DNA from: Escherichia coli
GTDB lineage: Bacteria > Pseudomonadota > Gammaproteobacteria > Enterobacterales > Enterobacteriaceae
DNA: 64,000 nt
Strand: one strand, 5' to 3'
Assembly: GCF_003018255.1 (NCBI RefSeq)
Contig: NZ_CP027440.1
Below, piece after piece: positions 18,848 to 46,209 of this stretch. Position 1 is the stretch's first letter. Every line of letters starts with the position of its first letter. The notes under the pieces are model-generated. The model did not search any database, was not told the DNA's origin, and was given only the letters and a program-made list of their open reading frames with translations. The position numbers and the translations under genes were made by a program.

Positions 18848-18950
18848 CATGAGTGCCAGATTGAAGCAGATCTTCAGGAGTAGAAATAACCGAATCGTTT
18901 TTTTCGCAAAACACAGTTTTGAGTGATTCCGTTCAGTAATCAACGCTACG

Positions 18951-19211
18951 TTATTTATTCTCACGTTGCACGAGATTGTATCCCTTTTCACTAACGTGGT
19001 AGTGAGGCATAGACTTATGCCCGCTATCCTCAATAATAACCAAACCTTCGTTAGCTAATTTGTTAACAATATTAACAATATTACCGAATCCTGGTATTTG
19101 CCTTATGGATAGTGTGCGATCGAGATTCATCCAGTTCCAGTTTATATCTTTCTCAGTCATAACGTTCAGCACGTTAAGTTCATTTTTAGTGATCACGATA
19201 TTCTGTACCAA
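18951..19211 (-). CDS. Candidate immunity protein, paralog 2 (distal copy)
   Basis: 86 aa; clearly paralogous to the 19271..19528 ORF (shared NVL.VM.EKDI.W.WM.LDRTL.IR.IPGFGN..NIV.KL...GLV); AT-rich; downstream of the Hcp-fusion gene. Confidence 0.6.
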   Translation of the reverse strand: MVQNIVITKNELNVLNVMTEKDINWNWMNLDRTLSIRQIPGFGNIVNIVNKLANEGLVIIEDSGHKSMPHYHVSEKGYNLVQRENK

Positions 19212-19270
19212 AATTGATGAGTATCTTATTGAAAGATCACAATGTAAATCATGCTCCTGTAATGGCTGGA

Positions 19271-19528
19271 TCAGAAGAGGTTGTCTTGTTGTTCTTTGAT
19301 AAGATTCAATCCATATTGAGAAACTCTGTAGCGTGGTTTAGAGTTGCCCTCACCATTTACGATATCAACCAACCCATGATTAACCAGCTTTGTTACGATA
19401 TTCGCTACGTTGCCAAATCCTGGAATATTTCGTATAGCTAAAGTACGATCCAGCACCATCCAGCTCCAGTCAATATCTTTCTCAGCCATAACTTTCAGCA
19501 CGTTAAATTCAACTATCGTAATCGTCAT
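19271..19528 (-). CDS. Candidate immunity protein, paralog 1 (proximal copy)
   Basis: 85 aa; start codon overlaps stop of the Hcp-fusion gene by 4 bp (ATGA at 19525-19528), i.e. translationally coupled; paralog of the 18951..19211 ORF. Confidence 0.65.
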   Translation of the reverse strand: MTITIVEFNVLKVMAEKDIDWSWMVLDRTLAIRNIPGFGNVANIVTKLVNHGLVDIVNGEGNSKPRYRVSQYGLNLIKEQQDNLF

Positions 19529-20658
19529 TTTTTTGCATCCGGATGAAATAAGTCAGTATCTTTAATTTTAAAGTCTTCTAGAGTTGCAGTATGTACATTA
19601 TTCCATAATTCATATCCATCTAAACCTTTCGGTTCACCTGTTTCCCATCCTAAATTACAATAACGCTGATACTCGCGACATTCATGAGTATAGTAGTTCA
19701 GATCGTATTTTTCAGGAAGCAATTCTTTATTTGCTATTTTCTTTAGCCTTGAAATCATTACATCATTAGCTGGATCATGATCAAATCTGGAGATATGCTT
19801 TTCAACAATAGCGATACCTTCCCTGTTGATTGTTACGCCATCTATCGTCAGGTTTTCAATTGGACCACCGGCAAGGTCGGGATTAAATGGTCTTCCTGAT
19901 ACTGCTCCTCTGGCTCCGAAATGCTCAAGTGATTCCAAATCAGGGAATCTCATTCTTCCCAGAACAACTCCAGCAACTATTGAAGCACCAGCGATGAGTA
20001 ACCCTTTGTTATCCATAACTTGATCGTAACCAGCAGGTGCATCTCCTCCCAACTTGTTTGCTGTTTCCCTGAATCCTTCGATATTCCCATTGTATATGCC
20101 GCCAGCAGCAAGCAGTCTGCCAACCGCTTTACTATTGAGTGTTTTGAGGCCATTATCATCTTTAGTTTTTGGCCGTGGTATAAACAGACGGTTGTAGTTA
20201 TCGGGAAATGCCAAATAACTAAATTCAGTATTAGCAATCAGATGCCTGGAGAGTATATATTCATAACTGGCAGTGATGGTTTCTGTATCCAGATTGTTCT
20301 CAGTAAACAGGTGATTGATTGCTGATAAGAGCGCGCCGCGGAGTTGAATGTTGTAATATTTCTCCCATCGACCAAATCTATTGATCCGATAGAAGTCAAA
20401 CTCCATGAACAACTGCTCGTTATTGTTAATAGCGTTAATAAGTAACGGGGAGCTTTTGTCAATCAACTTACAGAAACTAAGGCCATGTAATTGTGACCCT
20501 TTGCCTGTATTCGTAATACTATTAGATAGCGAGAACGCGAAGATTTCATCTTCATGGCCAATCTGCCAGCGATTACCTATTGATGCGCTCGTTCCGCAAC
20601 GAGAGGAAATACATCCTTGTTGTTCTCCGGTTATGGTCAGGTAAATAATATCACTCAT
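19525..20658 (-). CDS. Hcp (T6SS tube protein) domain fused to C-terminal extension of unknown function: candidate Hcp-ET type effector
   Basis: 377 aa; first ~165 aa resemble enterobacterial Hcp from memory (YLTITGEQQGCISSRCGTSASIGNRWQIGHEDEIFAF...KLIDKSSPLLINAI...EFDFYRI); ~210 aa C-terminal extension with GxxxG-rich hydrophobic segment and His/Glu/Tyr-rich tail (YYTHECREYQRY); AT-rich. Confidence 0.75.
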   Translation of the reverse strand: MSDIIYLTITGEQQGCISSRCGTSASIGNRWQIGHEDEIFAFSLSNSITNTGKGSQLHGLSFCKLIDKSSPLLINAINNNEQLFMEFDFYRINRFGRWEKYYNIQLRGALLSAINHLFTENNLDTETITASYEYILSRHLIANTEFSYLAFPDNYNRLFIPRPKTKDDNGLKTLNSKAVGRLLAAGGIYNGNIEGFRETANKLGGDAPAGYDQVMDNKGLLIAGASIVAGVVLGRMRFPDLESLEHFGARGAVSGRPFNPDLAGGPIENLTIDGVTINREGIAIVEKHISRFDHDPANDVMISRLKKIANKELLPEKYDLNYYTHECREYQRYCNLGWETGEPKGLDGYELWNNVHTATLEDFKIKDTDLFHPDAKK

Positions 20659-21049
20659 CCTTGAAAAACCTTTTGTTAATTCTTTTGTGAAAGAAAAATA
20701 GTATTGTTATTTTTTACCTTTATTTACGCCCAAAAGGGATGAACTAAAATGTGAAAAACAAAATGTTTCACTTTAATATCTTTTTATCAGGAAGGTCTGA
20801 GATAATTTATAATTAATGTGAATGTGTTGATAATAATTAATGTTTGTTTGAGAATGGGAGTTGATGGTAAATCTCTAAGGTGTCTGCCAGTGAAGAGACT
20901 CATTTATGACTATGACTTGCCGACTTTCTTAAGGTCAAATAGCGGAGTCGTGCTCTCCAATCAATTCATACTGATTATTTTTTGGGGGACAGAGATGGCA
21001 GCAAAATGCACTCGTTCACTCACCATCTCAAATATAGACTAAGAGGAAA
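20659..21049 (-). promoter_or_regulatory. AT-rich upstream/promoter region of the Hcp-fusion operon
   Basis: About 390 bp strongly AT-rich non-coding DNA upstream of the Hcp-fusion start; no precise -35/-10 assigned. Confidence 0.4.
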
Positions 21050-21862
21050 CTAATTCCGCTTCCCACCATACTGCTTAAACCACTCCAGCATACGCTGCCA
21101 GCCATCTTTCGCAGATTCGGCATGATAGCTCGGGCGATAATCGGCGTTGAATGCATGCCCGGCATCCGGGTAGACGATAATCTCTGCTTTCGCATTAGCA
21201 GCCCGCAGCGCCTGGCGCATGGTTTCAACGCTCTCCTGCGGAATGCTGTTATCCTGACCACCATATAAGCCGAGAACCGGCGCGTTAAGATCGGTTGCGA
21301 TATCAACAGGTTGTTTCGGTGAATTCAGCGACTTGTCGCCCGTCAGTTTGCCGTACCACGCCACTGCGGCTTTTAGCTGTGGATTATGCGCGGCATACAG
21401 CCAGGTGATACGTCCACCCCAGCAGAATCCGGTGATCATTAAACGATGAACATCGCCGCCGTTGCGGGAAGCCCAACTGGCGACATGATCGAGATCGGCC
21501 AGCACCTGCGAGTCAGGCACTTTTGCTACCAGACCGCTAAGCAACGTGGGGATATCGGCAAAATCATTCGGATCGCCTTCGCGGAAGTAAAGTTCAGGTG
21601 CAATAGCCAGATACCCCTCCAGCGCCAGACGGCGACAAATGTCGCGGATATGTTCATGCACGCCAAAAATTTCCTGCACTACAATGACCACTGGCAGTGG
21701 GCCATCGCTTTGCTTTGGTCTGGCATGGTAAGCAGGCATGTTATCCCCTTGTGAAGGGATAGAGGTGAAGCCCGCCACAATCGCGTCGTCCGGAGTCTGA
21801 ACGATGGTCGAAGCGAGAGGCGATGCCGCAGGTGCAAATCCAGATTGTTGTGTTGTTGCCAT
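21050..21862 (-). CDS. ysgA: Dienelactone hydrolase family protein YsgA
   Basis: alpha/beta hydrolase with dienelactone hydrolase-like sequence (GFCWGG nucleophile region); start chosen at MATTQQSGF; ORF track start at 21928 is a longer alternative. Confidence 0.85.
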   Translation of the reverse strand: MATTQQSGFAPAASPLASTIVQTPDDAIVAGFTSIPSQGDNMPAYHARPKQSDGPLPVVIVVQEIFGVHEHIRDICRRLALEGYLAIAPELYFREGDPNDFADIPTLLSGLVAKVPDSQVLADLDHVASWASRNGGDVHRLMITGFCWGGRITWLYAAHNPQLKAAVAWYGKLTGDKSLNSPKQPVDIATDLNAPVLGLYGGQDNSIPQESVETMRQALRAANAKAEIIVYPDAGHAFNADYRPSYHAESAKDGWQRMLEWFKQYGGKRN

Positions 21863-38664: not shown

Positions 38665-39837
<1,173 letters not shown>

Positions 39838-42027
39838 TTAAGCCGTTTTCAGGTCGCCAACCGGACGGGCTGGCTCAACCGGGGGATAGTACGGTTCGTT
39901 ATGACGCGCTTTATTACGCAGACCTTCCGGCACTTCATACAGCGGGCCGAGGTGCTGATATTGTTGTGCCATATCGAGGTATTTTGCGCTACCGAGGGTG
40001 TCCAGCCAGCGGAACGCACCACCGTGGAACGGAGGGAAGCCCAGGCCGTAGACCAGCGCCATATCCGCTTCTGCTGGAGTGGCGATAATGCCTTCTTCCA
40101 GACAGCGCACCACTTCGTTGACCATCGGGATCATCATGCGGGCGATAATCTCTTCTTCGCGGAAATCGCGCTTCGGCTGGCTCACTTCTGCCAGCAGGTC
40201 GTCAACAGCGGCGTCTTCTTCTTTCTTCGGCTTACCTTTGCTGTCTTCTTTATAACGCCAGAAACCGAGGCCGTTCTTCTGACCAAAGCGGTTGGCATCA
40301 AACAGCGCGTCGATGGCATCGCGATAATCTTTCTGCATCCGCTGCGGGAAGCCTGCTGCCATGACAGCCTGGGCATGATGCGCGGTGTCAATGCCCACAA
40401 CGTCCAGCAGATATGCCGGACCCATAGGCCAGCCAAACTGTTTTTCCATCACTTTGTCGATCTTGCGGAAATCCGCGCCGTCGCGCAGCAGCTGGCTGAA
40501 ACCGGCGAAATACGGGAACAGCACGCGGTTAACAAAGAAGCCGGGGCAGTCGTTAACCACAATCGGCGTCTTGCCCATCTTGCTCGCCCAGGCGACAACT
40601 TTCGCGATGGTTTCGTCGGAGCTTTTCTCGCCGCGAATAATTTCCACCAACGGCATTCGGTGGACCGGGTTAAAGAAGTGCATCCCGCAGAAGTTTTCCG
40701 GACGCTCCAGCGCGTTGGCCAGTTCGCTGATAGGAATGGTTGAAGTGTTAGACGCCAGCACGGTATCCGGGCGTACTTTTTGTTCGGTTTCTGCCAGTAC
40801 GGCTTTTTTCACTTTCGGGTTTTCAACAACCGCTTCTACCACAATATCCACGCGGTCAAACCCGGCGTAGTCGAGCGTTGGGTGGATTGTAGAGATCACG
40901 CCAGCCAGTTTCAGACCATCGATCTTGCCGCGCTCAAGCTGCTTGTTCAGCAGTTTCGCTGCTTCGGTCATGCCGAGGGTTAACGACTTGTCGTTAATAT
41001 CTTTCATGACAACCGGCACGCCTTTCCACGCAGACTGGTAAGCGATGCCGCCGCCCATAATGCCTGCGCCCAGCACAGCGGCCTGTTTCGGCGTTTCAAC
41101 GTCTTTGGTGAGTTTCTTCGCTTTGCCTTTTACATATTGATCGTTAAGGAATATGCCGACCAGTGCGCGAGCTTCGTTGGTATGCGCCAGCGGGACAAAA
41201 CTTTTGTTTTCCAGGTTTAGGGCTTCTTCACGACCAAAACGGGCCGCAGCTTCAATGGTTTTTACTGCGGTGATGGGGGCCGGATAATGTTTCCCCGCCG
41301 TTTGTGCGACCATCCCTTTAGCGATGGTGAAGCTCATGGTGGCTTCAATCTTGCTCAGTTTTAGCGGTTCCAGCTTCGGCTGACGTTTCGCTTTCCAGTC
41401 GAGGTCGCCGTTAATGGCCTGGCGTAAAATCGCCATCGCCCCTTCAATCAGTTTTTCTGCTTTGACTACGCCATCCACCAGACCGATTTTCAGCGCTTGA
41501 TCCGCGCCGACATCTTTACCGGCGGCAATGATTTCCAGCGCACTGTCAGCGCCCAGCATACGTGGCATACGTACAGAACCGCCAAAGCCCGGCATGATGC
41601 CCAGTTTGGTTTCCGGCAGACCGATGCGCAGATCCGGCGTCGCCAGACGATAATCGGTCGCCAGCACGCATTCGCAGCCACCGCCCAGCGCATAGCCGTT
41701 GACGGCAGCAATGGTCGGCACCGGCAGATCTTCCAGGCGATTAAACACGCTATTGGCAAAATGTAGCCACTGGCTTAACTGTTCTTCAGGAACGAGGAAC
41801 AGGGACAAAAATTCGGTGATATCAGCACCGACGATAAAGGCTGCTTTGTTCGAACGCAGCAGCAGCCCTTTTAGATCTGATTGCTGTTCCAGCACGCCGA
41901 TGGCCTCGCCGAGGCTGGCGACGGTGGCAGTGTCGAGTTTATTAACTGAACCTGGGGCATCAAATACCAGTTCGGCAATGCCATCTTCCAGCCAGTCAAG
42001 GTACAGGGTGTCGCCTTTGTAAAGCAT
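39838..42027 (-). CDS. fadB: Fatty acid oxidation complex alpha subunit FadB (enoyl-CoA hydratase / 3-hydroxyacyl-CoA dehydrogenase)
   Basis: Start chosen at [23 protein letters not shown] (729 aa); crotonase and 3HCDH domains; ORF track start at 42153 is an upstream extension that would run through the FadR operator. Confidence 0.95.
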
Positions 42028-42052
42028 GTCAGTCTCCTGAATCCGCAAGGTG

Positions 42053-42069
42053 ATCTGGTCGTACCAGAT
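42053..42069 (-). promoter_or_regulatory. FadR operator of the fadBA promoter
   Basis: Minus-strand reading atctggtacgaccagat, identical to the fadB FadR operator sequence as I recall it; lies 26-42 bp upstream of the fadB start. Confidence 0.8.
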
Positions 42070-42216
42070 GCATCGAAGTGTGTATTTTGTGTTAAAAATA
42101 TGCAAATAAAAGATTAAAGAAATGCCGATCTGATCACGCTCGGCAGAAATCACGCTCTGGATGAACGATGTGCTAAGATGCGGAGACTTAAGGTCAAAAA
42201 AACAGAAGGGTAAAAA

Positions 42217-43548
42217 ATGGAATCACTGGCCTCGCTCTATAAAAATCATATAGCTACCTTACAGGAACGGACTCGCGATGCGCTGGCGCGCTTCAAGCTG
42301 GATGCGTTACTTATTCACTCCGGCGAACTGTTCAACGTTTTTCTCGACGATCATCCCTATCCGTTTAAAGTGAATCCGCAATTCAAAGCGTGGGTGCCGG
42401 TAACTCAGGTGCCAAACTGCTGGCTGCTGGTGGATGGCGTGAACAAGCCGAAACTGTGGTTTTATCTGCCGGTTGATTACTGGCACAACGTCGAACCGCT
42501 GCCGACCTCCTTCTGGACTGAAGATGTAGAAGTGATCGCGCTGCCGAAAGCCGATGGCATTGGTAGCCTGCTGCCTGCTGCGCGCGGGAATATCGGTTAT
42601 ATCGGTCCGGTGCCGGAGCGTGCGCTGCAACTGGGTATTGAGGCCAGCAATATCAACCCGAAAGGGGTGATCGACTACCTGCATTACTACCGCTCCTTCA
42701 AAACCGAGTACGAACTGGCCTGTATGCGTGAAGCGCAGAAAATGGCGGTCAACGGTCATCGCGCGGCAGAAGAAGCGTTCCGTTCTGGCATGAGCGAGTT
42801 CGATATCAATATTGCCTATCTGACCGCGACCGGTCATCGTGATACCGACGTACCTTACAGCAACATTGTGGCGCTTAACGAACACGCTGCGGTGTTGCAT
42901 TACACCAAACTGGACCACCAGGCACCGGAAGAGATGCGCAGCTTCCTGCTGGATGCCGGGGCCGAATATAACGGCTATGCGGCTGACCTGACCCGTACCT
43001 GGTCGGCAAAAAGCGACAACGACTACGCACAGCTGGTGAAAGACGTAAATGATGAGCAACTGGCGCTGATCGCCACCATGAAAGCAGGCGTCAGCTATGT
43101 GGATTACCATATCCAGTTCCATCAGCGCATCGCCAAACTGCTGCGTAAACATCAAATCATCACCGATATGAGTGAAGAAGCGATGGTCGAAAACGATCTC
43201 ACCGGACCGTTTATGCCGCACGGTATCGGCCATCCGCTGGGCCTGCAGGTGCATGACGTAGCCGGTTTCATGCAGGATGATAGCGGTACGCACCTCGCGG
43301 CACCGGCAAAATATCCGTACCTGCGCTGCACCCGTATTCTCCAGCCGGGCATGGTGTTAACCATCGAGCCGGGTATCTACTTCATCGAATCGCTACTGGC
43401 ACCGTGGCGTGAAGGGCAGTTCAGTAAACACTTTAACTGGCAGAAAATTGAAGTACTGAAACCGTTCGGCGGCATTCGTATCGAAGACAACGTGGTGATC
43501 CACGAAAACAACGTGGAGAACATGACCCGGGATCTGAAACTGGCGTGA
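42217..43548 (+). CDS. pepQ: Xaa-Pro dipeptidase PepQ
   Basis: 443 aa M24B metallopeptidase ([13 protein letters not shown] metal-binding region). Confidence 0.96.
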
Positions 43549-45663: not shown

Positions 45664-46209
45664 GTGAAAACATTAATTCTTTTCTCAACAAGGGACGGAC
45701 AAACGCGCGAGATTGCCTCCTACCTGGCTTCGGAACTGAAAGAACTGGGGATCCAGGCGGATGTCGCCAATGTGCACCGCATTGAAGAACCACAGTGGGA
45801 AAACTACGACCGTGTGGTCATTGGTGCTTCTATTCGCTATGGTCACTACCACTCTGCGTTCCAGGAGTTTGTCAAAAAGCATGCGACGCGACTGAATTCG
45901 ATGCCGAGCGCCTTTTACTCCGTAAACCTGGTGGCGCGTAAACCGGAGAAGCGTACTCCACAGACCAACAGCTACGCGCGGAAGTTTCTGATGAGTTCAC
46001 AATGGCGTCCCGATCGCTGTGCCGTCATTGCCGGGGCGCTGCGTTACCCACGTTATCGCTGGTACGACCGTTTTATGATCAAGCTGATTATGAAGATGTC
46101 AGGCGGTGAAACGGATACGCGCAAAGAAGTTGTCTATACCGATTGGGAGCAGGTGGCGAATTTCGCCCGAGAAATCGCCCATTTAACCGACAAACCGACG
46201 CTGAAATAA
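45664..46209 (+). CDS. hemG: Protoporphyrinogen IX dehydrogenase (menaquinone) HemG
   Basis: 181 aa flavodoxin-like protein ([18 protein letters not shown]). Confidence 0.95.

Follow-up and report, generated by a model that had tools for sequence, protein, structure and literature searches.

FadR acts on the fad promoters as a GntR-family repressor that is released by acyl-CoA (PMC9329746, PMC3592433), and ArcA and, indirectly, CRP also act on the fadBA promoter (PMC9329746, PMC3460868). The FadR consensus is given as aaCTGGTCnGACC(T/A)Gtt in a review, in which the fadBA site is described as overlapping the transcription start site (PMC9329746). The sites of fadL, fadD, fadE, fadIJ, fadH and fadM share with that of fadBA a 17-bp architecture and the half-sites CTGGT and ACCAG, and they lie over the -10/+1 region, where the fadBA site would also lie (PMC9329746); fadBA has a single FadR site, whereas fadL and fadD have two each (PMC3460868). 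The DNA of the fadBA promoter has been used directly in binding and structural work. The fadBA promoter oligonucleotide in a FadR gel shift was ACTTCGACTCATCTGGTACGACCAGATCACCTTGCGG (PMC4259882), and the DNA crystallised with FadR was CATCTGGTACGACCAGATC, in which the protein reads the TGG of each half-site (PMC3592433). Feng and Cronan number the stretch TTGCATATTTTTAACACAA of the fadBA promoter as -36 to -18 (PMC3460868).

Here, we compared with these systems a palindrome found in a 64-kb stretch of E. coli DNA (the window, meaning the whole stretch that was analysed). A sequence-only reading had proposed that this palindrome is a FadR operator and that the program-made ORF covering it, a 771-aa version of fadB, starts too far upstream. 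Our main reading, to which we assign a probability of about 97%, is that the site lies in the fadB-pepQ intergenic region as the FadR operator before fadBA, that the 771-aa start is wrong, and that the true start of fadB is the ATG at 42027; no data contradicting this account were found in the analysis. The features of the region, with the evidence for each in brackets, are as follows.

42217..43548, plus strand: pepQ, the divergent neighbour across the 189-bp intergenic region (ORF list, K-12 and SMS-3-5 annotation).
42028..42153, minus strand: 126 nt of non-coding sequence wrongly placed inside the 771-aa ORF, comprising promoter, operator and 5' UTR (no period-3 conservation; frame broken in relatives).
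42100..42105, minus strand: TTGCAT, putative -35-like hexamer of the fadBA promoter (little or no variation among 78 distinct relatives; published numbering).
42077..42082, minus strand: putative -10-like hexamer CACACT, 17 nt after TTGCAT (invariant footprint block; spacing fits the published numbering).
42069, minus strand: approximate fadBA transcription start, estimated to within a few nt (numbering of PMC3460868 with the overlap statement of PMC9329746).
42053..42069, minus strand: FadR operator of fadBA, ATCTGGTACGACCAGAT (sequence, uniqueness, identity with K-12, gel-shift probe and crystal DNA).
42034..42038, minus strand: Shine-Dalgarno sequence AGGAG, 6 nt before the ATG (sequence; relatives show almost no change in the block GGATTCAGGAGACTGAC).
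39838..42027, minus strand: fadB CDS, 729 aa and stop, with ATG at 42027 (equivalent RefSeq position, structures, period-3 pattern).
38665..39828, minus strand: fadA, second gene of the operon, 387 aa (ORF list and RefSeq annotation at the same coordinates).

A direct read of the window from 42069 to 42053 on the minus strand gave exactly ATCTGGTACGACCAGAT, in agreement with the palindrome that had been claimed. The site consists of two 7-bp inverted arms, ATCTGGT and ACCAGAT, both perfect, around a non-palindromic ACG centre, which makes 14 of its 17 positions self-complementary (a 7+3+7 palindrome), and both half-sites, CTGGT and ACCAG, with their TGG and CCA motifs 5 bp apart, are intact. 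Direct alignment showed that it is identical to the fadB operator of K-12, and the same 17-mer is contained in both the gel-shift oligonucleotide and the crystallised DNA (PMC4259882, PMC3592433). The operator adjoins genes of fatty-acid degradation, fadB and then fadA lying directly downstream. The fadB site of DiRusso et al. 1992 is the one used in the FadR-DNA crystal structures. Judged by its sequence, the palindrome is the classical, well-characterised FadR operator of fadBA, and from the literature FadR would be expected to bind it in the present strain. Compared with the consensus, the site agrees at 13 of the 16 specified positions and departs from it at T2, A8 and A16, although with its perfect 7-bp arms it is more symmetric than most other FadR sites. 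The description of the site as perfect is thus right with respect to the K-12 operator, but it is too strong for the palindrome (14/17) and for the consensus (13/16).

When both strands of the 64-kb window were searched for the 17-mer with up to three mismatches, this one site was found, and 0.13 sites were expected by chance from shuffled sequence. The operator core CTGGTACGACC recurs exactly at 46059-46069 on the plus strand, inside hemG, where it codes for R-W-Y-D-R. This copy was rejected as a FadR site: its right half is ACCGT and not ACCAG (it lacks CCAG), and about 0.5 such 11-mers are expected in 64 kb.

Within E. coli, the region is highly uniform. Of 5426 complete E. coli genomes, 5425 carry the 421 bases that surround the site between fadB and the divergent pepQ, and many E. 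coli chromosomes match them at 100% identity. In K-12 MG1655, fadB (b3846) has 2190 bases and encodes 729 aa, and its distance from pepQ is 189 bp, as in the window. Alignment with the K-12 fadB promoter, which had been proposed as a check of the operator, revealed three differences in the 189-bp intergenic region; the operator, the hexamers and the Shine-Dalgarno sequence are free of them. The window and K-12 also share the C that flanks the 17-mer at either end (as in the crystal 19-mer) and the spacing between operator and ATG. A 46-nt stretch, which begins with the C that precedes the operator and ends with the ATG, showed at least 99% identity in 5413 of the 5420 complete E. coli genomes with a match. 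The other seven have at least one difference in these 46 nt, and could include variants of the operator or of the start region. No annotated feature covers the operator stretch in the sampled RefSeq records.

Conservation beyond the species was examined in 80 loci whose products are close relatives of FadB. They come from about 25 genera of Enterobacteriaceae, including Escherichia, Salmonella, Citrobacter, Enterobacter, Klebsiella, Raoultella, Kosakonia, Kluyvera, Leclercia and Pluralibacter. These loci gave 78 distinct sequences, the window's own included, which were aligned with MAFFT. The operator is exact in 34 of the 80 loci, carries one mismatch in 44 and three mismatches in two, so that 78 loci are within one mismatch of it; in 43 of the 44 one-mismatch operators, the change is C to T at the centre, the 'n' position of the consensus. 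Upstream of the ATG, the invariant blocks in the alignment are the operator, GGATTCAGGAGACTGAC, TTGCAT (-78 to -73) and CACACT (-55 to -50), and the operator and the Shine-Dalgarno sequence are the most conserved blocks of the intergenic region. As a separate observation, the T-centre operator ATCTGGTATGACCAGAT, found in 43 of the 80 relatives (e.g. the Enterobacter-type loci L007, L011 and L013) at about -36 from the ATG, produces together with the 43-nt spacing an in-frame ATG 12 codons upstream of fadB. This ATG has no ribosome-binding site and is not conserved, and it could mislead gene callers in Enterobacter-type genomes.

The start codon of fadB can be placed by several lines of evidence. 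First, the ATG at 42027-42025 opens the sequence MLYKGD and gives a product of 729 aa, which is the K-12 length, and the RefSeq start of fadB in K-12 and SMS-3-5 is the base equivalent to 42027. Second, the homologous ATG is found in all 80 loci, where the sequence before it is TTCAGGAGACTGAC or differs from that by one base; AGGAG is kept in every one of them and lies 6 nt upstream of the ATG in the window. Third, the period-3 pattern of third-position variation among the 78 aligned sequences begins only after this ATG. In addition, the protein is collinear over its full length, from residue 1, with the E. coli FadB structure 6tnm, a K-12-derived chain that differs by a handful of substitutions and has a 14-residue tag before MLYKGD, and its residues 1-714 align to residues 1-714 of Pseudomonas fragi FadB (1wdk), residue 1 to residue 1. 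From these comparisons, the true start of fadB is assigned to ATG 42027, with the operator 42 to 26 nt upstream of it, and the view that the 771-aa start is over-extended and that the protein begins at MLYKGD is upheld.

The position of the operator relative to the promoter was considered next to the published numbering. With TTGCATATTTTTAACACAA at -36 to -18, the transcription start would therefore fall at about the first A of the operator (42069), and the operator would span approximately +1 to +17. The 1992 footprinting paper reportedly places the operator at +9 to +25 instead. Under either numbering, the operator would lie at or just after +1, and the GTG at 42153, the start of the 771-aa ORF, would be upstream of +1. 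A sigma-70 consensus scan of 41950-42300 called no promoter; this silence fits a weak, activator-dependent promoter and gives no independent support for it. Because the scan called none, the two hexamers were assigned from their conservation and from the published numbering, which put TTGCAT-17-CACACT just upstream of the operator. The statement that the operator lies in the promoter is accordingly loosely right, in that occlusion of the start site is as expected for FadR repression, but the site would overlap +1 rather than lie upstream of it.

By analogy with the published systems, the regulation of fadBA at this locus can be pictured as follows. When long-chain acyl-CoA is lacking, a FadR dimer of the GntR family would bind both TGG/CCA half-sites of the operator, which would sit just after a weak promoter (TTGCAT, 17 nt, CACACT) and cover about +1 to +17 of the transcript. 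The bound FadR would block RNA polymerase at the fadBA start site, and acyl-CoA of at least 14 carbons would free FadR, so that fadBA would be transcribed. The operator, the hexamers, the ribosome-binding site, the start codon and full-length fadB and fadA are all present and standard, and FadR binding and its acyl-CoA release in the present strain would be expected from the literature. No fadR gene was found in the 64-kb window, in which tblastn with an approximate FadR sequence as query gave no match better than E = 1.5. Since fadR is outside the window, the intact operator shows an intact cis element only. The earlier suggestion that regulation of the fad operon is intact therefore holds for the cis elements, which are intact and standard, but in its wider form it exceeds the evidence.

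Four other explanations of the palindrome or of the start were weighed. The one that survives best would add to the operator role: at the RNA level, the palindrome may also fold into a hairpin that would sit at the extreme 5' end of the fadBA message and could protect it from 5'-end-dependent decay. If +1 is at 42069, the first 16-17 nt fold in the minimum-energy structure as a 6-bp stem with a 3-nt loop, and the base that varies among relatives (43 of the 44 one-mismatch loci) sits in the loop. However, the 60-nt fold is only modestly better than that of shuffled sequences (z = -1.9, with 10 of 200 shuffles folding as well), a scan of 41800-42400 matched no Rfam family, and the unvarying arms provide no covariation to support pairing. 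Moreover, FadR contacts, together with the 'n' at the centre of the consensus (PMC9329746), account fully for how the site is conserved, and the whole proposal depends on the position of +1, which is uncertain. We consider such a hairpin unlikely, and the operator role alone is the preferred reading.

A second explanation is that FadB is translated from GTG 42153 as a 771-aa protein, in which case the palindrome would be coding. The mechanical ORF on the program-made list (39838..42153, minus strand, 771 aa) indeed starts at this GTG, and its 42-codon extension, 42153-42028 (VISAERDQ...LRIQETD), spans the palindrome, as had been claimed. No stop interrupts the frame between 42153 and 42027 in the window, and in 16 of the 80 relatives the upstream frame is open for at least 65 codons or to the contig end. 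However, no purine-rich ribosome-binding site precedes the GTG, and the extension has no period-3 conservation and no counterpart in 6tnm or 1wdk, whereas MLYKGD is the start used by RefSeq and the solved structures. The relatives also argue against a coding extension. The operator-to-ATG spacing is 41, 42 and 43 nt in 6, 24 and 50 loci, respectively, and with a spacing of 41 or 43 nt a 1-nt indel puts the operator out of frame with fadB, as is the case in 56 of the 80; an insertion of one base before -17, between operator and ATG, is seen in 57 of the 78 aligned sequences. In 61 of the 80 loci, reading upstream from the ATG meets an in-frame stop within 29 codons, and only 19 have an in-frame ATG, GTG or TTG upstream of the operator before any stop. 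Furthermore, the estimated +1 is about 84 nt downstream of the GTG, which precedes even the -35 hexamer and thus would not be on the fadBA mRNA. Translation from GTG 42153 is effectively refuted. On the comparative evidence, the 42-codon extension is regarded as non-coding, and the 771-aa start is an artefact that arises when the earliest possible start codon following a stop is chosen; the ORF exists because this frame happens to be stop-free in intergenic sequence of the Escherichia/Citrobacter type.

Translation from the in-frame TTG at 42048, seven codons upstream of the ATG, would give a FadB of 736 aa. This codon is within the 5' UTR, downstream of the operator, and is present in the relatives with 42-nt spacing. 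However, it has no Shine-Dalgarno sequence, the 20 nt before it being the operator itself, and the conserved AGGAG is spaced for the ATG and not for the TTG. Where the spacing is 41 or 43 nt, as in 56 relatives, it is also out of frame, and P. fragi FadB aligns from residue 1, which makes initiation at this TTG highly improbable and leaves ATG 42027 as the start. The TTG at 42105 was rejected as a start as well; it is the TTG of the -35 hexamer.

Lastly, that the palindrome is a functionless chance match can be dismissed, given one site observed against 0.13 expected within three mismatches, its near-invariance, against varying intergenic flanks, in E. coli genomes and in about 25 enterobacterial genera, and the experimental binding of the K-12 site by FadR (PMC4259882, PMC3592433).

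The value of this result is one of quality control. The longest-ORF track places the fadB start 42 codons too far upstream, and a known regulatory site such as this one can be used to correct over-extended ORF starts. The operator and the start are both already known, and nothing beyond the correction of the ORF track is added; the fadBA cis-regulatory elements in the present strain are the standard E. coli set, and no open question is touched.

The only feature that is not yet in textbooks is a dimorphism beside the operator. Two of the three differences from K-12 are at 42071-42072 (-45/-44 from the ATG), just 5' of the operator, where the window has TG and K-12 has CT; the third is at 42107 (-80 from the ATG), where the window has A and K-12 has G. 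When the 59 nt at 42042-42100 were compared with complete E. coli genomes, 2736 of the 5421 with a match showed at least 99% identity and about 2592 fell in the 95-99% band, in which the sampled rows had 96.6% identity, equal to two mismatches, as the K-12 form has. The TG and CT forms thus split the complete E. coli genomes roughly in half, and TG is a common allele. The dimorphism sits at about -3/-2 of the putative fadBA transcription start, and it might alter the start site, the basal strength or the tightness of FadR repression between lineages, which we regard as quite unlikely. The TG allele also creates an out-of-frame ATG (42073-42071), which was rejected as a small upstream ORF: it is upstream of the estimated +1 and has no ribosome-binding site.

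Some further observations were made around the locus. SMS-3-5 is identical to the window over the 421-base query, but collinearity between the two starts only at about 21 kb of the window. Between metE and ysgA, SMS-3-5 has an island of about 8.4 kb that the window lacks (window about 18886-21064, compared with L083 12622-21065); its contents include arcC, fdrA and genes for a LysR regulator, a cytosine permease and a DUF1116 protein. With the island absent and the remainder of the compared region 96-98% identical, the window strain therefore differs from SMS-3-5. Between the fadBA and pepQ promoters, a direct repeat of GAGCGTGAT is present at 42134-42158 (minus-strand reading) in two copies, 16 nt from start to start. 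The mechanical GTG start belongs to the first copy, the GTGATC of the second copy is invariant in the 78 relatives, and the repeat may be a site for a regulator. In addition, the conserved block GCATCTTAGCACA at 42169-42181 reads TGTGCTAAGATGC on the plus strand. This resembles an extended -10 element (TGcTAAGAT), lies about 40 nt upstream of the ATG of pepQ (42217) and probably belongs to the pepQ promoter.
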